Positions 9,883 to 58,244 of a stretch of 64,000 bases of DNA are shown here, piece after piece (position 1 is the stretch's first letter; each line of letters starts with the position of its first letter). The stretch lies in the IMG/VR virus record IMGVR_UViG_3300001605_000009; one strand, 5' to 3'. Source of the DNA: a virus. Taxonomy: Duplodnaviria > Heunggongvirae > Uroviricota > Caudoviricetes. The notes under the pieces were generated by a model. That model had not been told where the DNA came from. It ran no database searches and saw only the letters and a list, made by a program, of their open reading frames with translations. The translations under genes and the position numbers were made by a program.

Positions 9883-9883
9883 A

Positions 9884-10426: not shown

Positions 10427-10442
10427 CTACGGGTGCTAATTA

Positions 10443-11115: not shown

Positions 11116-11141
11116 GTGCCTTTTGCCTTTCTGTTGATACT

Positions 11142-11185
11142 CTTATATCAAAATAGAGGTACTAAGTCAAGAACTATTTTCGACC
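11142..11185 (-). promoter_or_regulatory. sigma70 promoter with TTGACT, a 17-nt spacer and TATAAG
   Basis: The minus strand reads aaaatagttcTTGACTtagtacctctattttgaTATAAG, with a ribosome-binding site and ATG downstream. Confidence 0.6.
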
Positions 11186-11351
11186 TTCATTACTAGAGAG
11201 AAGTTCTCATATCGCCTGAGAAACTCTAGCTCACGAGACATAGTTTCCTCAATCATTGGTGAGAATACTGGAAAACTGTATGTAGAACTAATTGGGTTCC
11301 CACGAAGTGGGAAAGTGCTGGTGATAGTTACTTTCATGGTAACTCCTAAAA

Positions 11352-11442
11352 TGGTAGTCCTGTGTGGATTCGAACCACAATTAACCCCTAATCTGGGCTC
11401 CGGGATATAAATCCGGTCGTTTTACCATTAAACTACAGGACC
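11352..11442 (-). tRNA. tRNA-like gene, 91 nt, with a long extra arm; the anticodon may be UAU (Ile) but the fold is unusual
   Basis: The acceptor strands GGTCCTG and CAGGACT pair, and the D-arm and T-arm (TGTGG-TTCGAAT-CCACA) are canonical. The anticodon region is ccgga-TTTATAT-cccgg, and roughly 20 nt lie between the anticodon arm and the T arm. Confidence 0.5.
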
Positions 11443-11444
11443 GT

Positions 11445-11530
11445 TGGTGGGGAAGACGGGACTCGAACCCGCACGGACAAAGTCCACAAGATTTTAAGTC
11501 TCGCGCGGCTACCAATTTCACCACAACCCC
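11445..11530 (-). tRNA. tRNA-Leu (UAA), type II, with U-U mismatches in the acceptor stem
   Basis: The D-loop AAATTGGTAG and anticodon loop CTTAAAA are Leu-like, a variable arm and T-loop TTCGAGT are present, and the 3' end is CCA. The acceptor strands GGGGTTG and CTTCCCC give 5 of 7 pairs. Confidence 0.5.
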
Positions 11531-25003: not shown

Positions 25004-25397
25004 GGTACTTTTCCTTATTATCAGAAGAGAAATAAATACGCTCTTCTTCTTCAGAGAGAGGTCTACTCATTGGAGTATTCTTCTCGTCCCTCCAACACAG
25101 ATGGTTGGTATTCTCAAAAGGTATAAGCCAAGGTGTCATTAATTTCTCCGTGTAAGTGCGGCGGGTTCTGTTTCTAGGTTCCGCCAGACCCAAGAAGAAT
25201 CAAGCTACTAGAGCTAGACCTTCAAATGCTGAGTTATCGTTAGCATTTACTTTTTGTGGCTCTTTGCCAGTCAATAGTCTCGGCGTTCCCTATTACACGA
25301 AAATCGATCCCTGGTCGCCCCCATCATAGAATATCGGACTGTGTAGGTACCAATACACGAGACACTGATAAACGGTCAGGCTCTTCCCAATATTCTA

Positions 25398-25425
25398 TGG
25401 TGGAGGCGGCGGGAATTGAACCCGC
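25398..25425 (-). ncRNA. tRNA/tmRNA 3'-end-like element (T-arm, acceptor 3' strand and CCA) with no matching 5' half
   Basis: The minus strand reads GACGCGGG-TTCAATT-CCCGCCGCCTCCACCA. This matches the 3' end of bacterial tmRNA and tRNA closely. No complementary GGAGGCG was found within plausible distance. Confidence 0.4.
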
Positions 25426-25454
25426 GTCTTTTCGTCTTTATTGTCGGCTGTCAG

Positions 25455-25497
25455 CGACTATATACTCGTTATAACAAAAGTTACAACAAAAGTCAAG
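25455..25497 (-). promoter_or_regulatory. sigma70 promoter (TTGACT, 17-nt spacer, TATAAC) firing into the tRNA/tmRNA-like fragment
   Basis: The minus strand reads aaaaatatttcTTGACTtttgttgtaacttttgtTATAAC, about 45 nt upstream of the fragment. Confidence 0.5.
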
Positions 25498-25732
25498 AAA
25501 TATTTTTCAAGCGTTCGGCCTTAGCACGAAGATGCTCAGCTGGGGACATTCCGTAGTCCTGATGGTTAACAGAAATATTCGCTAGTACAAATCCAAGGTC
25601 TTTTCGCTCCTGATAGAACTGCTCACGCATCTTTCGCTTACGCTCTAGCTTCTGCTCACGAGTTTCTAGATTTGGGAAGTTGACTTGTCCGTTGGACTTT
25701 TGCTTCTGTACGACCTGTTCTGCTTCCTGCAC
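25493..25732 (-). CDS. hypothetical basic protein
   Basis: ORF with the promoter at 25830-25870 upstream. Confidence 0.4.
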   Translation of the reverse strand: MQEAEQVVQKQKSNGQVNFPNLETREQKLERKRKMREQFYQERKDLGFVLANISVNHQDYGMSPAEHLRAKAERLKNIS

Positions 25733-33348: not shown

Positions 33349-33422
33349 TGGTGCGGACGGAGAGTATCGAACTCTCGACTACTGGGTGGAAGCCAGTCAC
33401 GTTACCATTACGCCACGCCCGC
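33349..33422 (-). tRNA. tRNA-Gly (UCC)
   Basis: The acceptor strands GCGGGCG and CGTCCGC pair with one G-U. Anticodon loop CTTCCAC; T-arm GAGAG-TTCGATA-CTCTC. Confidence 0.75.
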
Positions 33423-33661
33423 ATTAATCCATTCTCTAACGTCGTCAGACGTGATACTAAACTTGTGATACTTCTTGAGCATAGACACTACTCTAGGTAC
33501 AATATAAGAGTATAGAACTACTCTATCCTTGACCTTGTTCTCTACAGTCAGATAAGGTTTACCTGCTATATAGGCTCTTGCTAGAAAGGTTGCTCTGTTC
33601 TCGTTTCCAACATCCCACCTACGATGGGCTGCAGTTGCTTATCGGCCACACCTAAGTTAAC

Positions 33662-33746
33662 TGGTGGGTAGTGTAGGGTTCGAACCTACCGTGCCTTTCG
33701 ACTCTGGGTTTACAATCCAGGACGCGTCCACTCGCGCATACTACCC
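33662..33746 (-). tRNA. tRNA-Tyr (GUA), type II
   Basis: An 85-nt gene with acceptor strands GGGTAGT and ACTACCC, anticodon loop TTGTAAA, a long variable arm, and T-arm GTAGG-TTCGAAC-CCTAC. Confidence 0.7.
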
Positions 33747-34118
33747 AATTATTTCTCTGCCGCTTTTCATCGTTATTAGTTTATTCGTGAACTCATTCCA
33801 TGTTTTAGCCCAAGGCCCACGAAAAGTCAAGACATATGTTTGACCATGCGAATCCACTTTGTGAAAATCTTCTCTAGTAGTAATGAAGGGAATCAAGCTA
33901 GGTTTATATTCACGAACGCTACCGTCGAGCATAGTCTCGGTCAGCTTTCCTTTTAGGACCCAACTAAAGCAGTTGAATGCATGATTGTGAAAAGCTTCAC
34001 GGCTACGACCGTCAAATTTTAGTATAAGAGCCGAGAATAAGCGCCTAGACTCAATAAGCCAGTAACCTGTTACTGTGCTTTCTGGTCCGCCGTCTTTCAT
34101 TTTCTTAAGGAGCTTCAT
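33741..34118 (-). CDS. hypothetical protein
   Basis: ORF only. Confidence 0.35.
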   Translation of the reverse strand: MKLLKKMKDGGPESTVTGYWLIESRRLFSALILKFDGRSREAFHNHAFNCFSWVLKGKLTETMLDGSVREYKPSLIPFITTREDFHKVDSHGQTYVLTFRGPWAKTWNEFTNKLITMKSGREIIG

Positions 34119-34375
34119 CCGTACATTTCCTGTTGCTCAAACATTCTTTCACGAAGACTAACTTCACGAAATAGTGCATCGTCCGGAACTGTTTTTAGTA
34201 GATCAATCTGCTCTTCTGTGAGTTGTGTACAGTAGTATCCATAATCTTCTGGATCAAGCTTTAACACATTCTTAATATAGTTAAAATAACTATGTTGATG
34301 TTCTGGACTAAGGTAGGCTCGGTTTACTAACATACCTCCATCTTTGACCCAAACTGGTACTTGAATTTCTTCCAT
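34115..34375 (-). CDS. hypothetical protein
   Basis: ORF only. Confidence 0.35.
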   Translation of the reverse strand: MEEIQVPVWVKDGGMLVNRAYLSPEHQHSYFNYIKNVLKLDPEDYGYYCTQLTEEQIDLLKTVPDDALFREVSLRERMFEQQEMYG

Positions 34376-34376
34376 A

Positions 34377-34727
34377 TCAAAATACCTTTAGCTGATTTGC
34401 ACTGAACCCAATCTGACGATACAGAATATCATTCAAGATAGGAAGTTTAGTTTTAACTATACCCATACGCTGAGAGTTAGGCTTCTTACGAAGAATAGTA
34501 CCTCTAGTCTTTAGACCCGCACCCTTTGCTAGTATAGCAATCTGACGTCCAATCTCATACCCAGGACTACTAATATCGTAGTTAAATGGCTCGCCATTAT
34601 AAATGGAAAGAATACCAGCATGAATACTAGGAATATTTAGCCAGTCTTCTACGGTTGTTCTAACGCCCTCTACGGTAATATTGCTCATTAGTATCTCCAC
34701 TTGTTGAAACCATATTAGCGGATTCAA
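34377..34727 (-). CDS. hypothetical protein
   Basis: ORF only. Confidence 0.35.
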   Translation of the reverse strand: MNPLIWFQQVEILMSNITVEGVRTTVEDWLNIPSIHAGILSIYNGEPFNYDISSPGYEIGRQIAILAKGAGLKTRGTILRKKPNSQRMGIVKTKLPILNDILYRQIGFSANQLKVF

Positions 34728-34756
34728 CGTGAAGGATCAAGACTTAAATTAGGAAC

Positions 34757-34832
34757 TGGTGAACCATGTTGGGATCGAACCAACGACACGGAGATTAAGA
34801 GTCTCCTGCTCTACCTACTGAGCTAATGGTCC
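34757..34832 (-). tRNA. tRNA-Lys (CUU)
   Basis: Acceptor strands GGACCAT and ATGGTTC, D-arm TAGCTCAGTAGGTAGAGC, anticodon stem GGAGA/TCTCC with loop CTCTTAA, and T-loop TTCGATC. Confidence 0.7.
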
Positions 34833-34987
34833 GAATACTTAACTCAATACACTAGATATTGTTAATACCACTCCGTTTAGCTTAAGAGTGCGTAAAAGCG
34901 ACCTGACAATCACCCTTTCGCATAGTGTCAGCTATACCGACACTTTGAGAGAGTGCCGTCTAGTGTACTGAGTTAAATACTCGGTAA

Positions 34988-35063
34988 TGGTGCCTCCCCG
35001 AGGAATCGAACCCCAACCTCTAGTTCTTCAGACCAGCGCGCACACCAGCTACGCCAGAGAGGC
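34988..35063 (-). tRNA. tRNA-Phe (GAA)
   Basis: Acceptor strands GCCTCTC and GGGAGGC, anticodon loop CTGAAGA, and T-loop TTCGATT. Confidence 0.7.
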
Positions 35064-35187
35064 AAAATGCTGTTACGGTAGCACTCCACTTGATTTATAC
35101 ATAGAACGTCAACTAGATAGCGTCTGCAGTACGGACCTAGTAATATAGTCTAGTGATAAATAGTGAAGTGCTGTCATAACAGCACAA

Positions 35188-35269
35188 TGGAGTCGGCGAC
35201 AGGATTCGAACCTGCATTTTCAATCCAGTTACCTTTCTCTCCGTTCGTAGCGGAGGGGGTTACGCCGAC
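35188..35269 (-). tRNA. atypical tRNA-like gene, 82 nt; the anticodon arm may read ACG (Arg) but the D-arm is irregular
   Basis: The acceptor strands GTCGGCG and CGCCGAC pair perfectly, the T-arm is GCAGG-TTCGAAT-CCTGT, and the 3' end is CCA. The internal arms CTCCG-CTACGAA-CGGAG do not fit a standard cloverleaf. Confidence 0.4.
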
Positions 35270-35278
35270 AATATTATT

Positions 35279-35944
35279 TTACCAGTTGGGTACTTTGTTA
35301 GATTTCTTTAGATTTTCTTCTACGGTTAAATACTGTAGGTTATTCTCTACATGTAGTCCACAACTATTTTTAGCGTTAAGAGGGTATATATGATCTACAT
35401 GATACCCTTCTGGACACTCATTATATATTTCTTTTAGCTTCTTAATATCTGCCCATGGAGCTAGGGCTTGTTTTAGTTGGGCCCTTCTTCTGGCATTCTT
35501 TTCTCTACCATGTATTTTCCAGTATTCCTGATGATACTCTTTATTATTTTGATAATTATTCTTATTATATGAAGATTTACAATCTGTGCAGTACCTGTCT
35601 ATACCGTCATGCTCTAGGGCAGATTTAGTGAAAGTCTCTCTTAAAGAGAATTCACTACATCCGGAGCACTTCTTGTAGTCTGACTGTCTTACTAGCCAGG
35701 ATACCCAGGTACCCTCCCCTCCTTGTAGCTTTACCTCAGGAAATAGCCTCTTAACTAATCTATTAAAGGTCTGTTCAGACCTACCAAGACTTTTTATAGC
35801 TTTTGGACCTGTTCCATAAGTAAATAGGGCGTCTACCACTTCTCCAAAACAAATAGGTGGTTTTTCACCTCTTTTGTTAATGACTATAGTGTACTGCCCT
35901 ATGTTTAGGTTTTTATAAATTGATTCTTTTACTTTCTGTTCCAT
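35279..35944 (-). CDS. HNH homing endonuclease, inserted within the tRNA cluster
   Basis: HNH motif GYHVDHIYPLNAKNSCGLHVENNLQYLTVEENLKKSNK. N-terminal DNA-binding region. The promoter at 35953-35997 lies upstream. Confidence 0.75.
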   Translation of the reverse strand: MEQKVKESIYKNLNIGQYTIVINKRGEKPPICFGEVVDALFTYGTGPKAIKSLGRSEQTFNRLVKRLFPEVKLQGGEGTWVSWLVRQSDYKKCSGCSEFSLRETFTKSALEHDGIDRYCTDCKSSYNKNNYQNNKEYHQEYWKIHGREKNARRRAQLKQALAPWADIKKLKEIYNECPEGYHVDHIYPLNAKNSCGLHVENNLQYLTVEENLKKSNKVPNW

Positions 35945-35952
35945 ATTCCAAA

Positions 35953-35997
35953 ATAATAGCAGTTTGGAGGACAGAAGTCAAGAACTAAAATTTGGTA
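35953..35997 (-). promoter_or_regulatory. sigma70 promoter with TTGACT, a 17-nt spacer and TATTAT
   Basis: The minus strand reads aaattttagttcTTGACTtctgtcctccaaactgcTATTAT, followed by the ribosome-binding site and ATG of the HNH gene. Confidence 0.55.
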
Positions 35998-36070
35998 CCC
36001 CAGGCGAGACTCGAACTCGCACAACTTTCGGACCTAAACCGAACGACTTTACCAATTTGCCCACAGGGGC
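35993..36070 (-). tRNA. tRNA with a UAG anticodon (Leu-like); one U-U acceptor mismatch
   Basis: Anticodon stem TTCGG/CCGAA with loop TTTAGGT, T-arm GCGAG-TTCGAGT-CTCGC, and acceptor strands GCCCCTG and CTGGGGT. Confidence 0.5.
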
Positions 36071-36078
36071 ACAATAAA

Positions 36079-36154
36079 TGGTGGAGGATAACGGGATCGA
36101 ACCGTTGGCCTCAACAGTGCAAGTGTTGCGCTCTCCCAGCTGAGCTAATCCCCC
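36079..36154 (-). tRNA. tRNA-Ala (UGC)
   Basis: Acceptor strands GGGGGAT and ATCCTCC (one G-U pair), D-arm TAGCTCAGCTGGGAGAGC, anticodon loop CTTGCAC, and T-loop TTCGATC. Confidence 0.75.
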
Positions 36155-36156
36155 AT

Positions 36157-36232
36157 TGGTACCTGATGACGGTCCTGCCCCGCCGACCTGAGTCTTGTAA
36201 GGACCCCGCTCTACTAACTGAGCTAATCAGGC
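36157..36232 (-). tRNA. tRNA-Val (UAC) with a non-canonical T-loop
   Basis: The whole gene aligns with canonical bacterial tRNA-Val except that the T-loop reads GGCAGGA instead of the canonical TTCGATC. The anticodon loop is CTTACAA. Confidence 0.5.
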
Positions 36233-36380
36233 AAACTTTTTTCTACAGGCATACTTTCGTAGCTGTTTCTTTTTATCTTTAATAACTTTTGGTTTGTTGT
36301 ATCTGTAGCTATTACCTGCTACAGGGTTTCTTGTCTTCATTTCAAGTTCTCCTTATAGCAAGAATTTAACTAACAGTCAA

Positions 36381-36457
36381 CATCTAAATTTGGTGAACCC
36401 TCTGGGATTCGAACCCAGGATCGCGGATTAAAAGCCCACTGCTTTAGGCCTACTAAG
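36381..36457 (-). tRNA. tRNA-Lys (UUU)
   Basis: Acceptor strands GGACCCT and AGGGTTC, anticodon loop CTTTTAA, and T-arm CTGGG-TTCGAAT-CCCAG. Confidence 0.7.
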
Positions 36458-36471
36458 CTAAGGGTCCGTTA

Positions 36472-38994: not shown

Positions 38995-39225
38995 TTACAG
39001 GTCAACATAAGACTTTAGATATGCTATTTCTTCTTCCGCATCCTGAGCGTACTCTATGTTCTCTAGCACTAGTAGAGAGATTTCCTCGCGCGCTTCCCTG
39101 ATTTCTTTGACAGCACGCATCATCCTGCTCATAGCAAGTGCGAGTTTGGCGTCTTGTTCGCCATCTACCGCCTTCATAACACGAAGATGTTCAATGCTTT
39201 GTCGTAGCTCTTCTTCAATAAACAT
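38995..39225 (-). CDS. hypothetical coiled-coil protein
   Basis: ORF only. Confidence 0.3.
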   Translation of the reverse strand: MFIEEELRQSIEHLRVMKAVDGEQDAKLALAMSRMMRAVKEIREAREEISLLVLENIEYAQDAEEEIAYLKSYVDL

Positions 39226-39246
39226 AGTTATCCTTTAGTGCTGAGG

Positions 39247-39552
39247 TCACCGTCCCGCCTCCCATGCTTCACGCTCCTTGCGCATTTGCTCGGTGGCGCG
39301 GGTGAGGTTGGCGCAAGGTCGGATGTGCGGCATTAATGCGCTGCCACCTAACCATGCTGCTACCACCCGCTTCGCCGCTTCTTCGTCAGGATCGGTCATC
39401 GGTGCAGGCGGGTTCATTAGCAGCTCGGCTACGGTTAAGACGGCGGGGTAATCGCGGCACCCCGGCCATTTGTAGTCATATACCGGTCCACTAGCATTCA
39501 GCAACCGCACGGCTTCGCGGCCTACGTGGTCGGGGATGGTGGTCATTTCCAA
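39247..39552 (-). CDS. hypothetical protein encoded in a GC-rich islet
   Basis: ORF in a segment of roughly 58% GC. It overlaps the upstream small ORF. Confidence 0.4.
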   Translation of the reverse strand: MEMTTIPDHVGREAVRLLNASGPVYDYKWPGCRDYPAVLTVAELLMNPPAPMTDPDEEAAKRVVAAWLGGSALMPHIRPCANLTRATEQMRKEREAWEAGR

Positions 39553-39683
39553 CTACCCCTTTTTGAAAATGATCGGGCGACGTAAAACCCGAACCATGCC
39601 AGCGCCAGAATGACGATAATCGTTGGAACGCCGATCAAGGCGGCAAGCGCCCAAAGCGCCCAAGTGGGGATTGTGAATGTCAT
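39543..39683 (-). CDS. small single-pass membrane protein (46 residues) in the GC-rich islet
   Basis: MTFTIPTWALWALAALIGVPTIIVILALAWFGFYVARSFSKRGSWK. Its ATG overlaps the stop of the upstream gene as ATGA. Confidence 0.4.
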   Translation of the reverse strand: MTFTIPTWALWALAALIGVPTIIVILALAWFGFYVARSFSKRGSWK

Positions 39684-39979
39684 GGCTGGCCTTTCGTGAA
39701 GGGTGCGAGGGCTTGGCGCATCTGTTCAAATGCCACAGTCGGTACGAGAACATATCTGGGGTGATGGTGCTCGCTGGTCATGTAGTCATCACCCATCGCC
39801 TTCGCAGCCTCCACCAGCGCAGCCACATCGGTTGCAACAGGCGTTGCATCTGTGCGTGTGGCGAGGATGCGATGCTGCGCTGCAATTTCGGAGGCCGTAT
39901 CGCAATTTACATCCCAAGCATTCCGAATGTTTCTAGCGCAGTCCTTATCAGCTTGAGTCACTTCGATCTTATCAGTCAT
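39680..39979 (-). CDS. hypothetical protein in the GC-rich islet
   Basis: 99-residue ORF whose composition differs from the rest of the window. Confidence 0.4.
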   Translation of the reverse strand: MTDKIEVTQADKDCARNIRNAWDVNCDTASEIAAQHRILATRTDATPVATDVAALVEAAKAMGDDYMTSEHHHPRYVLVPTVAFEQMRQALAPFTKGQP

Positions 39980-40080
39980 TTCTATCTCCTATTCATGAAT
40001 ATATATAGCAGGAACTAACTAAATAGTCAATATAAAAATTATAGTAGCCCATAGAATAATAGAAACTATACACCCAACTC

Positions 40081-40578
40081 TCATAGAAACTTCACAGCTA
40101 GTGCTGTGGCGTCCCACCAGGCGTTATGCTGTACCGCCTCAGTTAGTAATGTAGGGTAACAATCAATGTTCTCTACTGTGAACTTAATCTGCCTGTATCC
40201 AGTAGACTCCCACCCACCGTCTGGTCCAGTTGAGAGAGCCTTACAGAAACGGTAAATATCTACAGGGCTGTCTGCGACGATTTCGAAATCTACATCAGGT
40301 AGAAAGGCTCTCAGTACGGCACCCACATCATTTGTGTTGACATTGATGACCTTCGACGCAAGATGAGAATCTAATACAGGAATTACGTTTCCTGCTACCC
40401 ACGGGTCACACACTAAAGCATCGGCCACTTTGATATAAATGCTATCATGAATATTTACTAGAGCCATACTGATTAGATCACCGTCGTGGCCATCAAATTC
40501 ACAATCAAGGTAATATTTCATATATGTCTGCTTCCTTATATAGAGATTTCCAGTATTCAGCCTCGTACTCGGTATCAA
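40081..40578 (-). CDS. small DEDDh-type 3'-5' exonuclease
   Basis: Exo I motif YYLDCEFDG and Exo III motif HNAWWDA. Confidence 0.5.
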   Translation of the reverse strand: MIPSTRLNTGNLYIRKQTYMKYYLDCEFDGHDGDLISMALVNIHDSIYIKVADALVCDPWVAGNVIPVLDSHLASKVINVNTNDVGAVLRAFLPDVDFEIVADSPVDIYRFCKALSTGPDGGWESTGYRQIKFTVENIDCYPTLLTEAVQHNAWWDATALAVKFL

Positions 40579-41528: not shown

Positions 41529-42014
41529 TCATTGTGGACCACAAGGGTCAACAATGATTTGGTGGAATCCCTCATCTAATGTGGGCGGCTGATAGTTACG
41601 ATCCATCTGCCTAAGAATATGCTCTGGAATCCGTTTATCAGGCCTGCTAGCAAGTCGTTCTGCCCAATTATCAGGAATTGGAAAAACAACTGCCGTAAAC
41701 TTATGGTTTGGCAATGCCTTAAACAACCGTGCGCGACTCTTTACTGTTAAGTTTGTACGATCAATGTAAACATCTTCGTTACACCCTTCTAGAAGTTCCC
41801 AAAAATGTGCCTCTGCTTTCTTGATGTATTCTGGGAACACATTATTATATGTTTGTCCTCTAAGCTTAGCAAATAACTCGATAAAATCATCACTAGAAGC
41901 TACAAAGATATTATCTGGTCGGCTGGCAAGCCACGTAGACTTGCCAACTCCAGGAAGACCCACTAAAACATACGCATTAGGCATTATAAATAACTCCTGG
42001 AAACCATTCTGCAC
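41529..42014 (-). CDS. P-loop polynucleotide kinase-like protein (kinase domain of T4 Pnk-type)
   Basis: Walker A motif GLPGVGKST. The gene is small and sits next to the RNA ligase genes. Confidence 0.6.
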   Translation of the reverse strand: MQNGFQELFIMPNAYVLVGLPGVGKSTWLASRPDNIFVASSDDFIELFAKLRGQTYNNVFPEYIKKAEAHFWELLEGCNEDVYIDRTNLTVKSRARLFKALPNHKFTAVVFPIPDNWAERLASRPDKRIPEHILRQMDRNYQPPTLDEGFHQIIVDPCGPQ

Positions 42015-43191
42015 GGATTTCTTCGTACTTACTAGTCTTAGCTAGATTCTTGCGAATAGTATTATAAATTTTTTGCTCACAAACACTAACGGCATCTACG
42101 TACAGAACCTCGTCCCACATAGCAAACGCTATAGATCTATTAAGCCCACTCATTTTATTCGCATATGTGGTCGCGAAAGTCTTCCGATCCATACCACCGA
42201 TACGCCGACAGTTAGATACTTGTGAAACAATAGAGAGTGCCAAAGGATGAATAACTTTATTAAAGTCATTCTCGAACTGAGAAAGACGATCACGCTCTTC
42301 TTGTGGAAGATGCGCTTTCACGTCGTCTAGCTTTTGATCTAGAATAAGTTCAACAATGTGGCGATCCTGTAGAATACGCTCCTTAGCCTTGTGAATCTGC
42401 ACGTACCAGTCACACTTTAGCTTTACCATGTGTCCGTTGTCAAAACGCACAACGAAGCCTTCAGTGTCCTGAAGATCACGAGTGTGCTCAATAAGACCGT
42501 TGATGTGCTCCTGGGACGGGAAGGATTTCACAATTGGGATATTATACTTCTCGATAATAGGATAGTTATTATGAAGGTTGATAATATAACTACCGCGCTC
42601 CATATTACGAATAGCTGTAAGAATCAGACGATCCTCTGGATAGTCTAGAACGATGCGCTGCTTACGTGAGCACCACTCAAAAATAGGAGTAAACCCATTC
42701 TCGATAAGATCACGAGAGAAGTCAATGTAGTGTGGATTGTTATTCACAAACTCCTCAACAGGCTTCGCCACATCAGTAGCACCCATCTTAGTACCGAATA
42801 CTAGAACAGCACGATTAAAGAATGGGGCAATCATTGATCCATCCAGTTTATCCAGAATGATGTGATCCTCATACAGAGGAACATTCTCGGTCTCTGGTCG
42901 TTCGTTTACGTTGAAGAACTTGTGATAAGGACGGCGAAGAATATCGCCCGTTTCGTTGTCAAAGATAATACCCCGACATTCACGACGAGTAGCAGCGTGC
43001 TTAGCATCCGTAAAAGCTAGCTTGTTAAGCTGCTCGCTCCACTCAATCACAGGCGGAAAAGTATCCTCAAACATCACATTGTAGTTGATAACGGTATAAC
43101 CGTCTTTAACAGCCACTACAAATTCACTACGACCTTCAATCGCAGGAAGCACATCACTGATGTTACGAATTACTGGGAATTGATAGTTCAT
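41977..43191 (-). CDS. RNA ligase 1 (T4 RnlA-like)
   Basis: ECRGIIFDNETGDILRRPYHKFFNVNERPET aligns with the T4 Rnl1 segment [34 protein letters not shown]. The nucleotidyltransferase lysine motif DKLDGSM is present. Confidence 0.75.
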   Translation of the reverse strand: MNYQFPVIRNISDVLPAIEGRSEFVVAVKDGYTVINYNVMFEDTFPPVIEWSEQLNKLAFTDAKHAATRRECRGIIFDNETGDILRRPYHKFFNVNERPETENVPLYEDHIILDKLDGSMIAPFFNRAVLVFGTKMGATDVAKPVEEFVNNNPHYIDFSRDLIENGFTPIFEWCSRKQRIVLDYPEDRLILTAIRNMERGSYIINLHNNYPIIEKYNIPIVKSFPSQEHINGLIEHTRDLQDTEGFVVRFDNGHMVKLKCDWYVQIHKAKERILQDRHIVELILDQKLDDVKAHLPQEERDRLSQFENDFNKVIHPLALSIVSQVSNCRRIGGMDRKTFATTYANKMSGLNRSIAFAMWDEVLYVDAVSVCEQKIYNTIRKNLAKTSKYEEIRAEWFPGVIYNA

Positions 43192-43199
43192 TTGTCTCT

Positions 43200-43262
43200 C
43201 CTCTTTGAACCTTTATAGCCCAAAAACGAAAAAAAGTCAAGGCCTATTTTTGGCCTTGACTA
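43200..43262 (-). promoter_or_regulatory. overlapping terminator hairpin and promoter (TTGACT, 17-nt spacer, TATAAA)
   Basis: The minus strand reads GTCAAGGCC-loop-GGCCTTGAC followed by TTTTTTTCG. The TTGACT inside the 3' arm of the hairpin is followed by a 17-nt spacer, TATAAA, a ribosome-binding site and the ATG of the Rnl1-like gene. Confidence 0.55.
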
Positions 43263-43531
43263 ATTCTTTTGTATCGCTGTCGTAACGTAGAAATGACTAT
43301 TTCCCATAGAAACCAAGCACCAAATCCGCCAAATAAGACGTAGGCAGCTAGTGTCTCTCCTAAAAGGTATTCTATACCTAGTTCTACTCCAATTGATAGT
43401 CCACCGACTACTACCACAATAGCTAAAGTTCCTGCTAGAGCCACTCCTAGTAAGATAAAGAAGTCTTTACTTGGAGTAAGTGTCTTTTGTAATGCTTTCC
43501 AATTCATTCTGGCCCACTCCCGTTGCCCCAA
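43244..43531 (-). CDS. small membrane protein
   Basis: Two hydrophobic helices. Confidence 0.4.
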   Translation of the reverse strand: MGQREWARMNWKALQKTLTPSKDFFILLGVALAGTLAIVVVVGGLSIGVELGIEYLLGETLAAYVLFGGFGAWFLWEIVISTLRQRYKRISQGQK

Positions 43532-44160
43532 GCCTTGACAGGCCCAACATATCCTACTACTTCCCAGCGATCCTTAATACGAGCTTCTACTTCGTCGAAG
43601 GACAGAGGCTCGTAGTTAGTGTGCTCTACAGATACACAGAGATAACGCGGGTCAGGAACAGATACTGACTTATATTCACTAGGGTGGGAACTATGGTAAT
43701 CGCTCCAGCCTTTGGATACCATTTTATGCCTAGTCTGCATTACTTCATTGGCATGAAGGTGCCCATGCACGTTAACCTTAAATCGGTCAGTTACGCAGTC
43801 TGGATGCAGCGGAATATGGCTAAGAATAAACTTATCCACAAACACACGAACACCATACATCTTTTCAAAGCCAACTTCCCGATAGTACTTATCATGAAAA
43901 ATATCATGATTACCGCGTACTAGACGCTTCTTACCATTAAGACGTTTTACTAGCTCTAGTGAAGGCTTCTTGATGACAACATCACCAAGATGGTAGACGG
44001 TGTCCTGCGGGCTTACTTTAGCATTCCAACGCTCGATCATGGCCTCGTCCATTTCTTCGTTAGAAGAGAACGGACGTAGAGGATCCCCATTGGGAAGCTT
44101 AAACTTCTGCCACGAATTAGTGTGCCCGAAATGGGTATCACTTATAACAAAGCTGCTCAT
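43504..44160 (-). CDS. calcineurin-like metallophosphoesterase (candidate RNA 2',3'-cyclic phosphodiesterase or 3'-phosphatase in the RNA-repair cluster)
   Basis: Phosphoesterase motifs DTHFGH, GDVV, GNHD and HGHLH. Confidence 0.65.
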   Translation of the reverse strand: MSSFVISDTHFGHTNSWQKFKLPNGDPLRPFSSNEEMDEAMIERWNAKVSPQDTVYHLGDVVIKKPSLELVKRLNGKKRLVRGNHDIFHDKYYREVGFEKMYGVRVFVDKFILSHIPLHPDCVTDRFKVNVHGHLHANEVMQTRHKMVSKGWSDYHSSHPSEYKSVSVPDPRYLCVSVEHTNYEPLSFDEVEARIKDRWEVVGYVGPVKAWGNGSGPE

Positions 44161-44383
44161 TCATATACTCCAATATATCATATAGTACGCTGGTACTGAG
44201 ACCTGTTCGACCTGTTCTTAGATCATCTCGAATACGATCACGAATCATTAGCTCCGCGGCTTCTGCATTCGTGAACATAAAATCATTAAGCTCTTGAAAC
44301 TTCTCAATTTCCTCAAATGAGGGCTCTGGATTATAAGGCTCTCGTGGTTTGTAGGGACCTAAGTCTCTATCATAGTCTGTCAT
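44138..44383 (-). CDS. hypothetical protein (start set to the ATG that overlaps the lipoprotein stop)
   Basis: The ORF in the track begins with TTG. An ATG six nucleotides downstream overlaps the lipoprotein stop as ATGA. Confidence 0.35.
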   Translation of the reverse strand: MTDYDRDLGPYKPREPYNPEPSFEEIEKFQELNDFMFTNAEAAELMIRDRIRDDLRTGRTGLSTSVLYDILEYMNEQLCYK

Positions 44384-44556
44384 GAGCAAGTATCTGGCAT
44401 ATCATAACCCGCAGAATACTTAGGGGCTATCCCATTGTCTGACCCCTGCCAGTATGCTACACCATCTATGCATATAATTTCATATTTAGGTTTAGGGGTT
44501 GGCTCACTGCAACCCGAGAGTAGACCTAGACATAGAATAATTACTGGATATTTCAT
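44380..44556 (-). CDS. small lipoprotein (58 residues, lipobox LLSGC)
   Basis: MKYPVIILCLGLLSGCSEPTPKPKY... It is below the 60-residue ORF cutoff of the track. Its ATG overlaps the Rnl2-like stop as ATGA. Confidence 0.45.
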   Translation of the reverse strand: MKYPVIILCLGLLSGCSEPTPKPKYEIICIDGVAYWQGSDNGIAPKYSAGYDMPDTCS

Positions 44557-45569
44557 GAATTAATCCTTTTAATAAACCAAGGGCGAGCCTTGTTAGCAAT
44601 TGGTCCACCAAGCTTCTTAGGATCAAACCCAGAGGCTACAATAGTATCGGTTTCTTCCTTTACAACATCGTTGTAGACCCAACGAATGAAGTCACCCATT
44701 GAAGTCATATCTAGGGGCTTTAGTTGCTCACGAACTAGGTTATCAACACCCTGTTCTAGACGTTGCTCGGTAACTGTAGTGTCAACGAAGTCCTTGAGAG
44801 CTTGAACGGCTTCAACGTCTACAGCAGCTAGAGTCTTAACCTTAGATGCTGAGTGCTTTTCACCCTTTACCTTGAAACGAAGACCTTCCCAACCTGGTGT
44901 AACGCAGGTCCAAACAACACCTTCTCCGACACCAGATACACCGAAAGCCTTGCCCACAGGGCATTCGTTTTCGACGGCTTCTGTGATTTCGATCATGCGG
45001 TTCTGTGCTAGTTCAGGATGTGCGAAGTCAATGTCAAGCTCCCACATTGGAAACTCCTCAATGTCACGAACACCTGGAATATCAGTAAACTCAGTTTCTC
45101 CAGATAGAGGGTCACTCCAGAGCTCTGTACCGTCTTGTTCAATAAACTTCACTGCGAAGATGACAAACATCTTAGGCAGTTCACTAACAGCCACACCACG
45201 TTGAATGCCTTGTCCACACCACTCACCGTATACGGCAATCTTGCGCACACTTGGGTGGCTCATAGTACCAAAGAATTCTAGCCACTTTTTCTCGTACTTC
45301 ATCTGTGCTAGCATGAAGCCAGCGTTATCCTGAGTAAGACTTAGCACCCGTTCACGAGACTGATAAGAAAGTTCTTGTGAAACATAATCGTACACTACAG
45401 CTGCGTTTGTACCGTGAAGCTTCACAGTACCATGAAACTTCAGAGTTGGAAGCTCCCGTGTATGGTCATAGATTGGCTGGCCTGTATCATCCTTACCGAC
45501 ATAGCGGTGTGACGCCTTCACATGATGAATGACGTTGCGAAACTGCTCGATTGATGGAAACTTAATCAT
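44553..45569 (-). CDS. RNA ligase 2-like nucleotidyltransferase (start corrected to an internal ATG with a ribosome-binding site)
   Basis: KLHGTN matches the KxHGTN lysine motif of T4 Rnl2. The promoter at 45578-45640 and the ribosome-binding site taaggagat place the start at 45569 rather than 45752. Confidence 0.65.
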   Translation of the reverse strand: MIKFPSIEQFRNVIHHVKASHRYVGKDDTGQPIYDHTRELPTLKFHGTVKLHGTNAAVVYDYVSQELSYQSRERVLSLTQDNAGFMLAQMKYEKKWLEFFGTMSHPSVRKIAVYGEWCGQGIQRGVAVSELPKMFVIFAVKFIEQDGTELWSDPLSGETEFTDIPGVRDIEEFPMWELDIDFAHPELAQNRMIEITEAVENECPVGKAFGVSGVGEGVVWTCVTPGWEGLRFKVKGEKHSASKVKTLAAVDVEAVQALKDFVDTTVTEQRLEQGVDNLVREQLKPLDMTSMGDFIRWVYNDVVKEETDTIVASGFDPKKLGGPIANKARPWFIKRINS

Positions 45570-45577
45570 TCTTATCT

Positions 45578-45640
45578 CCTTAACAAAACAAATATAGCCC
45601 ATCAACCGAGAAAAGTCAAGGGCTATTGAAAGGCTTGGTC
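45578..45640 (-). promoter_or_regulatory. sigma70 promoter with TTGACT, a 17-nt spacer and TATATT
   Basis: The minus strand reads caatagcccTTGACTtttctcggttgatgggcTATATT. Confidence 0.55.
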
Positions 45641-45775
45641 CATAAAGTCGTAATATGCCTGTGTAATCAAAAGTGATTAGTGTATAATCATCTGACATGA
45701 AGGCATACTCGTTTATCTCGTCTGCGTAGCACCTAGGTTCCGTCCGGTCCATACGTAAATATCATCCGGCATTGT

Positions 45776-47115: not shown

Positions 47116-48492
47116 TTACTTGATTTCAGCGCGTTTTCGAATGTCCTCGAAAGTTTGCTGCTTAGGGACTTCTCCGTCTACAAAGACTACTCGAAGATAG
47201 TCACCTACTGTTTCATAGTCGTCTTCATGATTACTTACTGTAAAGTACTCGTTGTAGAATGTTTTACCTAACTTCAGCAAGCCCCGCTTAGAGCGCTTAC
47301 CACTATCAGTGACTGGATCTTTATAAACATCAACCCATTTGCCGTTGATCTTAGCAGCTGAGCACTTCATGGCGAATTTAAAATCGTCTCGATTAACGAT
47401 CTGAAGAAGCGCGCCGCCCTGACCAAAGACTACGTTATCAGCACTGAAGTCGTGTGCTGCTAGATTGTCTAGAATAGCACGAATAGAGTCGATGTTGATA
47501 CCGTCACCCTGCAATACGCGAACGTTATTAAGAACCTTAAAGCCCTTTTCGTTTACAGTGTAGCCGAAGTATTCTGCTAGAATGCTTACGCAGTCTAGTA
47601 CTACTTTCTTTGGCTCTCCAGAGTCCGGACGAACAACAAGAGTAGCGCCGCTGTCTAGAACATCCTGCTTTAGTACTGTACCCCACAGCTTGCAGGCTTC
47701 ATAGATATTGTAGCTGTCTGAAACAGCGGATACAATACCACCTGGCTTACCATTCTTCTTAACCATGTTACGGTACGCGTCAACTTCGTTTTCGCGACCC
47801 CAACTGGTTACAGTGCTATGTTCCATAGCGGGAACACTGAACCCAGCCATATCAGCACCATAGTGGCGACGAGCAAAGAGCAGAGCTTCAATAGTGTCAG
47901 TACCCATGAAGTTGACAAGATGCGCTGCTCCGCCAATTCCAGCCGACTCAAGCGAGCTAACACCGCGAGAACCAAAGTCATGAAGCTTAAAGCTAATATC
48001 AGCAGGAGTTCCAGTGCGAACGAGAGCATCTAGAATGACCTTCTTAATTTCGCGGCTATTGGTAGCCACAGTTGTAGGATACCAGATCGCTCGAAGAAGC
48101 GCGGTTTCTAGGAACGACGTCAACCACCAGCAATTTGGATCAGTATTCTCAATAGTGGCGAGCACGTTATGAGTTGGCACGACAGTGCCCTCATGTACAG
48201 CTGTGATAAGAACAGGAAGACGACCGTCATGCTCACGAACAATGTACTCCCAACCCTCACGGTTGAAAGGCTCACCATGTGCTAGAATGATGGCTTCCGC
48301 TTCATCAATCATTTCCATAGTGATAGGTTCCATCAAGTATTCTTGAATGAATGCCTGAAGACCAAAGAACACAGTTTCGTCGTACTTGCCACCACGGCTT
48401 TCGATGTAGCTATATACGATTTCAGTACCTTCGGGGTACTGGTTAAATTGGCTGTATTTGTAGCTATCGCTGTTTAGGATAATGTTTTTCAT
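47116..48492 (-). CDS. nadV: nicotinamide phosphoribosyltransferase (NadV/NAMPT)
   Basis: A 458-residue protein with an NAMPT-like N-terminus (LNSDSYKYSQFNQYP) and overall family architecture. Confidence 0.8.
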   Translation of the reverse strand: MKNIILNSDSYKYSQFNQYPEGTEIVYSYIESRGGKYDETVFFGLQAFIQEYLMEPITMEMIDEAEAIILAHGEPFNREGWEYIVREHDGRLPVLITAVHEGTVVPTHNVLATIENTDPNCWWLTSFLETALLRAIWYPTTVATNSREIKKVILDALVRTGTPADISFKLHDFGSRGVSSLESAGIGGAAHLVNFMGTDTIEALLFARRHYGADMAGFSVPAMEHSTVTSWGRENEVDAYRNMVKKNGKPGGIVSAVSDSYNIYEACKLWGTVLKQDVLDSGATLVVRPDSGEPKKVVLDCVSILAEYFGYTVNEKGFKVLNNVRVLQGDGINIDSIRAILDNLAAHDFSADNVVFGQGGALLQIVNRDDFKFAMKCSAAKINGKWVDVYKDPVTDSGKRSKRGLLKLGKTFYNEYFTVSNHEDDYETVGDYLRVVFVDGEVPKQQTFEDIRKRAEIK

Positions 48493-48540
48493 GTTGGTTT
48501 CCCTTTTGATGCCTCATTATATGAAATTTCAGCTAATTGG

Positions 48541-49014
48541 TCAAGCCCAATATTTAGTAATGTATGTGATTAGGTCTTCCAAACTATCAACCACATTAAG
48601 ATCATATACGCTAGAAACAATATCTACATTTCCTTTACGCCAGAACGGATCAGGACAGTATACAATAGCCTGTTGTCCCATTCCAGCAACAAGGCCAAGC
48701 TCTAGTAGAGTAATTGGTGATTTTGTACTTGGATCAAATACAAATACTACCAGATCACTGTTTTCAATACCAGATAGCTCCCATAGTACTTGCTCTTGAA
48801 ACTGTTCGTTATCAATAGATTGAGTCCAACTGCTGTCCCAATCATCCCTACGAGGATTAAGGAAGGTAATATCACTATTCTGAAAATGACTAACTAATTC
48901 ATCTTGCCAGTTGATAGCTGTACCCATTTCAATAGAGCCAGCTAGAAAGATTAAAGTATTAAACTCATCAAACTCATTTGGGGCTTTAATTACTTGCATA
49001 TACTGTTGTTCCAT
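48541..49014 (-). CDS. nucleoside 2-deoxyribosyltransferase-like or Rcl-like protein
   Basis: The IFLAGSI motif and a Rossmann-like fold resemble the deoxyribosyltransferase/LOG superfamily. Confidence 0.45.
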   Translation of the reverse strand: MEQQYMQVIKAPNEFDEFNTLIFLAGSIEMGTAINWQDELVSHFQNSDITFLNPRRDDWDSSWTQSIDNEQFQEQVLWELSGIENSDLVVFVFDPSTKSPITLLELGLVAGMGQQAIVYCPDPFWRKGNVDIVSSVYDLNVVDSLEDLITYITKYWA

Positions 49015-49202
49015 TACAGCTCACTCGCATAGGGCGAATAGGCTTTCTATTTACTAGTACTTCGACGTCGCTCTTACCTACAGTTTCCCAGATACGATAA
49101 GTAGGAATATCAGGAACTTCTAGTCCCGATCGTAGCGCTGTCCAGCATTGCCCTGCGTACACCCACTGTACACAGAGCATATCATTTCGTGTTTTCTTAC
49201 CT

Positions 49203-49703
49203 TCAGACATTTGTAAACTCCACTAATGTTGCTGATCCACCCTTAAGCTCTTTAGCAAACTCTTCTAGCATTGAAATGATACGATCCTTATCTCCACCAG
49301 CTAGGCCCATTCCAATGTAAGGAAAGCCAAAGTCGTAGTTTGGATAAAGATGCAAAAGCTTCTGTAGAATAACAGCGAAACTGGCATATTCAAAGTGGTC
49401 CTTACCCCGTGGTAGGTAGTCGTACTGTGTATACGCGTTCACAATAGTAAAACTCCCAACCCTAGTATGTGTGAAGTTTCCTAGCTTTAGATATGGAATG
49501 AGCTTTTTCTTCTCGTGATAAGCCGTATCTACATCGTATGCAGACGGAAAGCGCTCTCGAATCTCTTTAGCAATACCACTTCCCATAGTATTCTTGCAAT
49601 TGCAGCCATGAACGATAATATCGAACTTACCGCGCTCTGCTAGAGTGAGAAGGTTTCCTTTAGTGTGCTGTAGCATCTTGAGACCACTCCCAGTATTTAT
49701 CAA
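49203..49703 (-). CDS. Macro domain protein (ADP-ribose binding or ADP-ribosylhydrolase)
   Basis: DIIVHGCNCKNTMGSGIAKEI matches the Macro domain glycine-rich ADP-ribose-binding loop. Confidence 0.6.
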   Translation of the reverse strand: MINTGSGLKMLQHTKGNLLTLAERGKFDIIVHGCNCKNTMGSGIAKEIRERFPSAYDVDTAYHEKKKLIPYLKLGNFTHTRVGSFTIVNAYTQYDYLPRGKDHFEYASFAVILQKLLHLYPNYDFGFPYIGMGLAGGDKDRIISMLEEFAKELKGGSATLVEFTNV

Positions 49704-49959
49704 GTTTTTCTAGCTCTCTCGAGCCTATAGCAATAATATCCGAGTCTGGGAAATTATTAGCAATAAAGAAGTTTAGAGCGGCGGATACGTCTGCTAATTC
49801 TTCAATAAGATTCTGGCCGAGATCAGCGCCACCCCAATAGGCTAACTCCCCACCGTTCCCTATGATTTTACTCAGAACAGTTTGAAGCTCTCCCATCTCC
49901 TCTTGAAGTTTAGACAACCCTCTCCATGAATCTGTTGATTTAATTCTGTACATCACCAA
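49660..49959 (-). CDS. MazG-like nucleotide pyrophosphohydrolase
   Basis: The EEMGEL and IEELADV acidic motifs are typical of MazG/HisE family proteins. Confidence 0.5.
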   Translation of the reverse strand: MVMYRIKSTDSWRGLSKLQEEMGELQTVLSKIIGNGGELAYWGGADLGQNLIEELADVSAALNFFIANNFPDSDIIAIGSRELEKLDKYWEWSQDATAH

Positions 49960-50144
49960 CTCCTAATAATTGCTTGATGACCACAATTAGGGCAGTCTAC
50001 CCACTCGTGTCCATCAGGACCGCCACTGTAGTCCCTACCACGGTACTCTTTCACTTCACAGAGCTTGTACTCTAGAATAGAAGCACATCCGCGACAGGTA
50101 ATCCGCTTCACAGCTGACTCGTCTCGTCCTACAACTTTAACCAT
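49953..50144 (-). CDS. zinc-ribbon protein
   Basis: CRGC...CPNCGH motif. Confidence 0.4.
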   Translation of the reverse strand: MVKVVGRDESAVKRITCRGCASILEYKLCEVKEYRGRDYSGGPDGHEWVDCPNCGHQAIIRSW

Positions 50145-51189
50145 TTAGTAGTTCCTTAATGATATGATAATGATCGTCGAACATAACACTTTCATCTAGC
50201 TCAGAGATATTAATCCAGCCAGCTGAGACAGCATCATCTGCGCCAACCACATCAGGTCGTTTACCCATCCAGCTAATATCAAAGTAAAAACAGTGACTTA
50301 CAGTATGTCCCATAGTTGAGCGACCTGGATGATCGGCAATGAACAGCTTTGGCTTCCCACTAAGTAGTAGGTCATCCTTAGTAAGTTGCAAACCAGTTTC
50401 TTCAAGCAGCTCACGAAGTGAGCCAGCTAGTGTGCGCTCGCCCGCATTAAGATGGCCCCCAGGAAGAGCTAGAAGCCCCTTACCGGGGTGTTTTCCACGC
50501 TCTACAAGCAGAATCTGGTCGTTATATCGAACCACAGCATCTACAGTGATCTGCTTAACAGGATACGGGGAAGAAGACCACAACTCTGTGTTTATATCAA
50601 TTTCTGTCTGCCAATCAGACATGTAGTTGATAAAACCTAGCTCAGAGTTAGTAATTACGTCTACTGTGCTCCATGGGAGGTTATCTAGCTGTAGCGAAAA
50701 GTCTCGGAAGAGTTCTTCACGAATATCAGTGGCATTCAGCGGGGCATCAATAGCCCACTCTACTAGATCATAGTTTGGGAACATATCAAGGTAGTAGCTA
50801 GACTCGTCCTTACGGGCACCGATGATGCCAATCTTGAGGTCAGCAGTACCATTGTTGTGAAATCCATCAGGATTGGCAACGTCTAGTGCTGTGAACTTGA
50901 TAGCTTCTCTTACTTCGGCAGCCCATGCACTATCATCATAGGGCTGGTCCCGAATAGCGTCTGTATATAGATTTGTGCCTTCAGGATAAGAAGCTAGAAT
51001 CATATCAGAGCGCTCTTCATAGGTCCATGGATTCTTTGGAGTACGCGCACCACCAGAACTTCCAATAAGAACTAGGACGTTCTTGGCTTTGGTAAAAGCA
51101 TGGTCGATCACACTCTTGTGACCCTTATGAAACGGCTGAAAGCGTCCGATGTATACTAGAAGGTCGTACATTATTATCTCCTTATGCAC
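50137..51189 (-). CDS. bifunctional NMN adenylyltransferase and Nudix ADP-ribose pyrophosphatase (NadM-Nudix, NatV-like)
   Basis: Nucleotidyltransferase motif GRFQPFHKGH at the N-terminus and Nudix box GGHLNAGERTLAGSLRELLEETG at the C-terminus. Confidence 0.85.
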   Translation of the reverse strand: MHKEIIMYDLLVYIGRFQPFHKGHKSVIDHAFTKAKNVLVLIGSSGGARTPKNPWTYEERSDMILASYPEGTNLYTDAIRDQPYDDSAWAAEVREAIKFTALDVANPDGFHNNGTADLKIGIIGARKDESSYYLDMFPNYDLVEWAIDAPLNATDIREELFRDFSLQLDNLPWSTVDVITNSELGFINYMSDWQTEIDINTELWSSSPYPVKQITVDAVVRYNDQILLVERGKHPGKGLLALPGGHLNAGERTLAGSLRELLEETGLQLTKDDLLLSGKPKLFIADHPGRSTMGHTVSHCFYFDISWMGKRPDVVGADDAVSAGWINISELDESVMFDDHYHIIKELLNG

Positions 51190-57380: not shown

Positions 57381-57575
57381 TGCTTATCTCCGTTGCTTGA
57401 AACTCATTCTAGCCGTTTTAGTGCGCGAAGTCAACATGAAAAAAATAGTTCTTGACACCAGTTTGCACCTGGTTGGCGAACGAAGTTCGCAAGCTTGGTA
57501 AAAATAGTTCTTGACACAAGCATGGCCTAAAATAGATGTTGACTTCGCACTAGCCGGCGCAGGATTTTTGGCGCT

Positions 57576-57620
57576 ACAAAAATAACCGCCACACCTTTGC
57601 AGGGGGCGGTTATTTTTCGT
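57576..57620 (-). terminator. bidirectional rho-independent terminator
   Basis: ATAACCGCC-loop-GGCGGTTAT with T-tracts on both strands. Confidence 0.6.
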
Positions 57621-57768
57621 ACTAGCCGATCCAACGGCAGGCTCTGTTCATTCTAGACTGCGTAAAACAGGCACTGGGAGGGATCCGGTCGTGTACTGAT
57701 ACTAGGAGGGGTGAGGAGTGTCGTTGCTACTCAATGCCTCACCTTATTGTAGCGTTTCCTAGTATTGC

Positions 57769-58080
57769 TTAGGCACTCAGTTTCGAACGAAGTTCGACGA
57801 GTACCAACTTAGGAGCCTTCTCAAGACCATCGAGGCTGCGACCAACGAGGGCCGAAATCTCAGCTACAATGTCTTCCTTGCTCTCGATCTTACCGCCAGT
57901 CTTGCTGGTCTTGACCTTACCACGGTAGGAGCCGAGGCGGACTGCCTTAGCACGCACCGAGCGCACGTCCTTACCAAATTCAGCGGCGAGCATTTCTGCC
58001 GTAGCGTTGTCGATAACCTCGAATTCAGCGAGGCGGGCTTCTTGAGCGTCGGTGTAGTTCTTGATGATGGTCTTGGTCAT
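57769..58080 (-). CDS. helix-turn-helix paralog family member
   Basis: LAAEFGKDVRSVRAKAVRLGSYRGKVKTSKTGG aligns along its whole length with the ORF at 60752..61075. Confidence 0.55.
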   Translation of the reverse strand: MTKTIIKNYTDAQEARLAEFEVIDNATAEMLAAEFGKDVRSVRAKAVRLGSYRGKVKTSKTGGKIESKEDIVAEISALVGRSLDGLEKAPKLVLVELRSKLSA

Positions 58081-58148
58081 AAATGATCCTTTTCTTGGGT
58101 TGATTTAGTATTTATAGTTGGTTTGGGGTTGAATGTCAACTACTATTT

Positions 58149-58244
58149 TCAGAAGTCCTGGTACATGTCCCAGACGCGGCTGGTGTCGTAGTCGTCTTCG
58201 AGGGCGTCTTGGTCTTCAACGAAATCGTCTTGATACTGATCCAT
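58149..58244 (-). CDS. 31-residue highly acidic mini-protein (candidate DNA mimic or anti-restriction protein)
   Basis: MDQYQDDFVEDQDALEDDYDTSRVWDMYQDF, with the ribosome-binding site gaaggaagga upstream. It is not in the ORF track. Confidence 0.4.
   Translation of the reverse strand: MDQYQDDFVEDQDALEDDYDTSRVWDMYQDF

Follow-up and report, generated by a model that had tools for sequence, protein, structure and literature searches.

Does a short high-GC islet in the genome of a distantly T5-like phage represent foreign DNA and, if so, which DNA entered, from where and for what function? The islet lies at positions 39240–39990 of the stretch of phage DNA analyzed here (64,000 nt, hereafter the window), and a preliminary description had read it as a compact, horizontally acquired module with a GC content of ∼58% against a 38% background. 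The first value was right (57.0% measured at 39240–39990), but the background is nearer 42% overall (42.3% for the whole 64-kb window) and 35–46% in the immediate flanks. The islet tops all 750-bp windows (z = 4.8; mean 42.3%, sd 3.1%), and the runner-up, at 57461, reaches 50.4%. In 200-bp windows the GC content is 46–50% at 39000–39299, 56–60% within the islet and 34.5% at 39900–40099. The windowed plot shows the sharp change that had been claimed for the islet edges, and composition shifts at the codon level too. The GC content at third codon positions (GC3) is 0.545, 0.587 and 0.667 in the three islet genes (A, B and C, respectively), each exceeding all 28 long genes of the window used as reference (0.366 ± 0.066, maximum 0.51), and codon positions 1 and 2 of the islet genes are likewise GC-enriched. 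The runner-up peak (57461–58210) surrounds a 103-aa minus-strand ORF (57769–58080) and has no similarity to the donor loci described below.

The window covers the part of a large phage genome that serves replication and nucleotide metabolism, and it encodes a family A DNA polymerase, DnaB helicase, NAD-dependent ligase, two RNA ligases, NAMPT and NMNAT/Nudix. The polymerase is 44% identical to those of T5-like phages, and the recipient appears to be a distantly T5-like lytic phage of roughly 42% GC. The window sequence is also present on contigs of 126.9 and 106 kb, and megablast and blastn searches of cultured phages with the islet and its flanks returned no match at the DNA level and no close relative. 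The minus strand of the window carries 20 strong sigma-70-type promoter motifs, when 0.8 were expected from shuffled sequences, and this set looks like the strong early promoters of T5. The motifs (TTGACN-N17-TAWAWW) are found, for example, at 62975, 60700, 58807, 47100, 45619, 43240, 40030 and 39005, and several of them share TTGACTTT...GGGCTATA.

Other features of the recipient were recorded. Two tRNA gene clusters on the minus strand (9216–11530 and 33349–36467) hold 14 genes by ARAGORN and 15 Rfam tRNA matches, with three of the Rfam matches at sites uncalled or partly called by ARAGORN (35191–35269, 36160–36232). Beside a tRNA cluster, a 2324-aa minus-strand ORF (11626–18600) gave no Pfam match at E ≤ 0.001. 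The minus-strand segments 41529–45752 and 47116–51189 hold an RNA-repair-like set (T4 Rnl1-type ligase, AAA_33 kinase, second RNA ligase and metallophosphatase) and an NAD salvage pair (NAMPT; NMNAT-Nudix). Sets of both kinds have been linked elsewhere to the countering of host defences.

The islet itself comprises 733 bases and three genes, all encoded on the minus strand, which carries nearly all genes of the window. The features of the locus are as follows.

38995..39225, minus strand: resident flanking gene g76 (76 aa, GC3 42%), downstream of the islet
39226..39246, minus strand: spacer of 21 nt that holds the ribosome-binding site for the following resident gene, without a terminator
39247..39546, minus strand: gene C, 99 aa, predicted four-helix protein (AF2 model), 201 homologous clusters
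39543..39683, minus strand: gene B, 46 aa, predicted single-pass membrane peptide (ORF, hydropathy, homolog P0177)
39680..39979, minus strand: gene A, 99 aa, ORF with 55 homologous clusters
39985..39990, minus strand: ribosome-binding site AGGAGA for A, in native DNA (read from the sequence)
40002..40030, minus strand: sigma-70-type promoter-like site TTGACT-N17-TATATA of the resident class, in AT-rich native DNA directly upstream of A
40081..40578, minus strand: RNase H-like resident flanking gene (phrog_2259, E 5.3e-18), upstream of the islet
40093–40108: hairpin near the end of the RNase H-like gene

The ORF coordinates first given for A and B stand. Gene C had been placed at 39247–39552, with a TTG start; the ATG at 39546 is the more likely start, because all homologs and the database protein P0056 begin with MTTIPD.... 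With this start, C overlaps the stop codon of B in an ATGA, as B does with A. The tight ATGA-type junctions noted earlier were therefore read directly, both of them 4 nt, but the long overlaps also proposed would need the TTG start. The overlaps imply that A, B and C would be translationally coupled. A coding signal is evident from the homologs (55 clusters for A, 201 for C and one full-length protein for B). The lack of an obvious family was borne out, and no significant family was found for A, B or C in Pfam, PHROGs, NCBIfam, PADLOC or PDB sequence searches. No Rfam RNA family lies within the islet.

Protein A consists of two helical-hairpin modules with a conserved linker (TRTDATPVA-TDVAALVEAAK) and a conserved end (ALAPFTKGQP). 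Its conserved segments MDKIEVTQAD, RLATRTDATPVA, PPATDVAALVEAAK and ALAPFTKGQP surround unrelated modules, as in a block mosaic. The AF2 model of A is of low confidence (pLDDT 63.8) and too poor for a fold search. Among phage records A matched only two Synechococcus phages, over 42 residues of its C-module (64% identity; LVEAA.AM.DDY.TS..HHP..VLVP..AFE.MR.AL), and this module therefore travels well outside the donor group. The two cultured cyanophages, Ssp-JY42 (PP438432.1; L143 2234–2743) and OM868079.1, encode a 169-aa hypothetical protein that shares the C-module.

The 46-residue product of B had been called a transmembrane protein, in agreement with its maximum Kyte-Doolittle hydropathy of 2.58 over 19 residues. 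Because a 27-residue hydrophobic core is followed by a basic C-terminal tail, B is predicted to be a single-pass membrane peptide. Its one full-length homolog, P0177 (63% identity), is encoded in contigs of 58–59% GC (L141/L142), where it is likewise ATGA-coupled, with neighbours that differ from those of B. B also matches phrog_4169 (E 1.8e-4). We rejected the idea that B is a detached C-terminal part of a longer A protein, since the longer homologs of A, which lack a membrane segment, terminate in the same ALAPFTKGQP as A itself, and B has a homolog of its own.

Homologs of C fall into 201 clusters at 60–78% identity. The AF2 model of C (pLDDT 82.8) has helices at residues 6–18, 34–44, 53–66 and 77–98; the near-invariant blocks of the family correspond to the helices and two hypervariable stretches to loops. 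An exhaustive profile search of 1.84 billion proteins yielded 20 representatives at 50% clustering and no distant annotated branch, which shows the family to be narrow. No fold relatives of C were found.

Where does the imported DNA begin and end? Homology to the donors starts at codon 3 of A (about 39973) and stops exactly at the TGA of C (39247), and thus exactly three ORFs appear to have been imported. The promoter-like site at 40002–40030 lies outside the donor homology and is also present in a sister contig (L144). A 19-mer from the promoter and ribosome-binding site region gave seven matches, all by chance. At the other edge, no terminator-like hairpin plus T-run is present in the 21 nt between the stop of C and the next start. 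The islet is the sole part of the 64-kb window that matches donor loci. The closest relatives of the resident RNase H-like gene (40081–40578) show 55–57% amino acid identity and come from viral contigs of 40–47 kb (L056–L066), some of them from JGI sample 3300020045, which is also the source of donors L006 and L140.

Homologs of A, B and C were found only in metagenomic phage contigs of 55–59% GC (P22/lambda-like and T7-like). Contigs with A and C homologs (about 37–58 kb, 55–57% GC) carry them in early regions packed with small overlapping genes, and their neighbourhoods include P22-type Cro, NinB, integrase, SSB, GapR, DNA methylase and Lar-type restriction-alleviation genes. In the T7-like contig L140, an A-type gene is located between the DnaB and DNA polymerase genes; endonuclease VII and a single-subunit RNA polymerase are encoded close by. 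The C-module of A (39686–39835) is identical to L140 at 149 of 150 nt (99.3%), and its N-module shows 90.7% DNA identity to contig L001. DNA identity is about 75% for B (L141/L142) and 76–81% for C (various donors). The order A-B-C was present in none of the sampled donors.

When the window copy was compared with the donor consensus in the conserved blocks, 9 of 174 positions differed, with 3 GC→AT and 5 AT→GC changes. There is no GC-to-AT drift, and thus the transfer would be recent or exchange with the donors would continue. Matches had been expected in high-GC bacteria or their phages: the phages were found, but not the bacteria, with no relatives of C in two scans of 185,579 representative bacterial and archaeal genomes. 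A tblastn search of phage records with C gave no match. The 57% GC of the islet equals the 55–59% of the contigs with homologs. This agreement, the 99.3% identity to a donor over 150 nt, the restriction of donor matches to the islet and the different genes carried at the site by a sister phage strongly support the proposal that the islet is a compact foreign module, acquired horizontally.

In the sister contig L144, obtained from a different run, the 3′-end of the RNase H-like gene is found together with the same promoter and ribosome-binding site, and AGGAGATAGAAATG at the ribosome-binding site of gene A is identical in it. On the other side, L144 1041–1176 aligns to window 39247–39112 (the spacer and g76) at 95.6%, starting exactly at 39247. 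A g76 homolog occupies the same position, and the first 12 nt of the spacer (39226..39246) encode, in L144, the end of a different cargo gene. The cargo of L144 consists of (i) an A-type gene with the same N-module and another middle and C-module, (ii) a 47-aa gene ending in ...VRAILKEQDD, and (iii) a 61-aa gene of a family found in donor L137; B and C are absent from its slot. The same flanks with different genes of the donor pool suggest, therefore, that the site is a cassette slot whose cargo turns over. L144 is the only relative found to have the same flanks, and no empty slot was found among relatives; the IMG/VR relatives of the window phage have single genes in common with it, not the neighbourhood. 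We infer insertion into the slot from the composition and the homology of the islet and not from a comparison of genomes before and after it.

The donor pool is itself a mosaic. In the donors, A and C are separated by 0–3 unrelated genes, and the gap between them holds nothing, a pair of genes of 114 and 60 aa, a 146-aa gene or a 70-aa protein with two transmembrane (TM) segments. The genes downstream share MGGWTVK... starts and ...VRAILKEQDD ends around unrelated middles. Scars with fused termini were observed at L140 8473–8560 and L133 251–373. In the former, a remnant of the last block of C (KERKAWEAGR*) runs into a minimal ORF that has only the conserved MGGWTVK start and the VRAILKEQDDA end. 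In the latter, a fused ORF begins like the 60-aa gene and ends with ALAPFTKGQNDG, the terminus of an A-type gene.

Within C, three blocks show 92–97% DNA identity, and at many of their four-fold degenerate codons 14 of 14 loci agree. The two variable stretches, of about 12–21 residues and varying length, lie 78 nt apart and are effectively unrelated, with about 50% DNA identity. Among 105 C proteins there are 38 types of the first stretch (V1), 37 of the second (V2), 93 combinations and 70 four-gamete quartets, counts to which short-read assembly chimeras across the shared 78-nt block may add false combinations. The hypervariable loops of C would thus reassort almost freely on an invariant DNA scaffold, and this might be more than ordinary mosaicism. 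A far-reaching and, in our judgment, unlikely extension is that the A and C families are helical scaffolds, and that recombination through DNA blocks invariant even at silent sites creates new combinations of their surface loops. Such recombination-based generation of diversity would serve small host-interaction proteins in a common pool of T5-like, T7-like and P22-like phages of one host with defined slots, and the islet would be one docking site.

These data are best explained, with good probability, by a recently imported A-B-C block in a cassette slot of a T5-like phage, drawn from a mosaic pool. In this scheme (i) exactly three ORFs would occupy a slot bounded by an early-type promoter of the resident phage and by the resident gene that follows; (ii) their source would be a hyper-mosaic pool of early accessory genes in phages of 55–59% GC (P22/lambda-like temperate phages and one T7-like phage); (iii) entry and later turnover of cargo would occur via recombination during co-infection; (iv) short near-invariant DNA blocks at the gene ends and within genes would serve as the recombination homology; and (v) the resident promoter would drive transcription of A, B and C, whose translation would be coupled.

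Donors and recipient probably share a host lineage, and there is a hint that the host is an alphaproteobacterium, which is suggested by the tmRNA type of the window and by GapR, encoded in donor L005. The window carries an alphaproteobacterial two-piece permuted tmRNA on the minus strand at 25157–25500 (RF01849, 79.7 bits, cutoff 50; RF04321, 90.8 bits, cutoff 47), with the ARAGORN-predicted tag ANDNSAFEGLALVA. Genes of this kind are rare in phages (53 of 18,146 genomes), and the lineage of a phage tmRNA can disagree with the current host (PMC9004378); the tmRNA is therefore taken as a hint only.

What might the cassette do? No family, defence-system or fold match was obtained, including anti-defence matches for A, B or C in Pfam and PHROGs, and therefore function is read from context only. 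That context is the placement in early regions, the occurrence in three unrelated phage types, the hypervariable loops and the position of the membrane peptide, together with the Lar-type genes and the DNA methylase near A or C in L001, L141 and L153–L156. As a tentative reading, A and C may be small helical proteins whose hypervariable loops bind a variable target of the host or of a rival phage; the cassette might then be a host-interaction module, most plausibly for anti-defence or anti-restriction, with B as a membrane-anchored helper. Lar-type genes (PF14354) recur within 1–2 kb of A-, B- or C-type donor genes: they were located at L001 7391–7717, L141 1673–2044, and L153/L154 4715–4915 and 6288–6485, the matches in L141 and one of the two in L153/L154 being weak. 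The T7-like contig L140 carries Gad2 (PF26128) at 4126–4707.

The anti-defence reading is favoured, and a membrane-centred exclusion function comes second. Here B would block DNA entry of competing phages, in the way that gp15 of HK97 is described as inserting into the inner membrane and blocking genome entry, and A and C would be accessories. B is a convincing single-pass membrane peptide that is kept in a second phage group, a different 70-aa two-TM protein is encoded directly upstream of C in L006 and L133, and small inner-membrane exclusion proteins are often encoded by moron-type insertions (PMC3594210). However, B is missing from nearly all A/C loci and from the L144 slot, and has no similarity to known exclusion proteins, its homolog in L141/L142 has different neighbours, and we consider exclusion rather improbable.

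Three tiny, translationally coupled genes also bring to mind a toxin-antitoxin or toxin-immunity system, in which one small toxic protein is neutralized by a coupled partner. Residues 54–92 of A do match phrog_2268 (‘antitoxin’), but weakly and not significantly (E 0.065), and PADLOC, Pfam and NCBIfam gave no hits. A is found without an intact C in L140, where only remnants of the 3′ block of C follow, and without C in L144, and in L006 C has no A within about 1.2 kb upstream. Such loose association would not be expected of an obligate pair, and because the donors do not carry A, B and C as a constant set, this option fits worst among the functional readings and is very improbable.

Could the islet be an artifact, a high-GC phage fragment wrongly stitched into a T5-like contig during metagenome assembly? 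Logan contigs do break inside the islet, at 39276, 39364, 39393, 39840 and 39893, marking a region that is hard to assemble. Four of these five breakpoints fall in blocks shared with the donors (residues 52, 61 and 91 of C and residue 47 of A), as expected if other phages in the samples share the blocks, and the fifth is at residue 29 of A, in the N-terminal module. Against a chimera, an ENA contig of 106 kb and Logan contigs of three further runs match the islet and both junctions at 100% identity, and on either side they cross from native DNA into the islet; the foreign segment amounts to exactly three ORFs, placed in frame after a native ribosome-binding site; and the sister phage, which comes from a different run, likewise has foreign genes in this position. 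We regard a chimera as extremely improbable. That the genes are native, their high GC content arising from amino acid content or local selection rather than transfer, has a practically negligible probability: the GC enrichment of first and second codon positions would fit, but GC3 far exceeds that of every reference gene, and the DNA is 99.3% identical to that of an unrelated T7-like phage and 76–91% identical to P22-like contigs that have nothing else in common with the window.

How does the cassette compare with known systems? Morons, such as the gene 15 element of HK97, are added genes of deviant GC content between conserved phage genes (Juhala et al., 2000, in the account given in PMC3594210). 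[quoted passage not shown] The islet resembles them in its deviant GC content (57% vs. 42%), its apparent character of ‘more DNA’ and its horizontal spread, and morons often encode small membrane or host-interaction proteins. In contrast to morons, the promoter upstream of the islet belongs to a resident class with 20 copies, lies outside the imported DNA and is common to L144; the islet has no terminator of its own, consists of three coupled genes rather than one unit, and resides in a lytic T5-like phage rather than in a prophage.

A likeness to early anti-defence clusters (Lar, Gad2) lies in the placement of donor A and C among small early genes near Lar-family genes and a methylase, and in the presence of Gad2 in L140. 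Unlike the members of such clusters, A, B and C resemble no known anti-defence protein in sequence or fold, and the link is one of neighbourhood only.

The conserved scaffold with localised hypervariable stretches in a phage protein recalls diversity-generating retroelements. The target of such an element is a variable region of fixed length, with a template repeat, changes at adenine positions and a nearby reverse transcriptase. Unlike these targets, the stretches of C vary in length, are unrelated to one another and are not adenine-templated. No reverse-transcriptase Pfam family was found among the called genes of the donor loci, and no template repeat in the loci examined. This origin of the variability of C was rejected on the variable lengths, the ∼50% DNA identity and the donor loci without reverse transcriptase.

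Mosaic exchange at conserved gene-boundary sequences is a familiar property of lambdoid phages. The islet and its donors share with them the conserved gene termini with swapped bodies, the overlapping stop and start codons and the fused-termini scars (L140, L133). Here, unlike in lambdoid mosaics, even very small genes have conserved blocks in their interior, two hypervariable loops separated by only 78 nt show almost free reassortment, and one pool is common to P22-like, T7-like and T5-like genomes. In lambdoid phages, short conserved sequences at the borders of genes mediate the exchange of modules (Juhala et al., 2000, as presented in PMC3594210).

The type of event is already known, and the protein families involved are uncharacterised. 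The locus provides an unusually clean, datable case of gene flow between T5-like lytic, T7-like and P22/lambda-like temperate phages, because the contrast in GC content reveals the boundaries of the transferred DNA at single-nucleotide resolution; a lytic phage would keep a slot behind an early promoter, with cargo turning over from a shared pool. Because of its invariant helices, reassorting loops and anti-restriction neighbours, this pool is worth searching for new anti-defence or exclusion functions. Otherwise the finding is an instance of well-known phage mosaicism, and the most fitting description of the islet is a start-to-stop accessory cassette that changes hands by a known process, the mosaic recombination of phages at conserved junctions.
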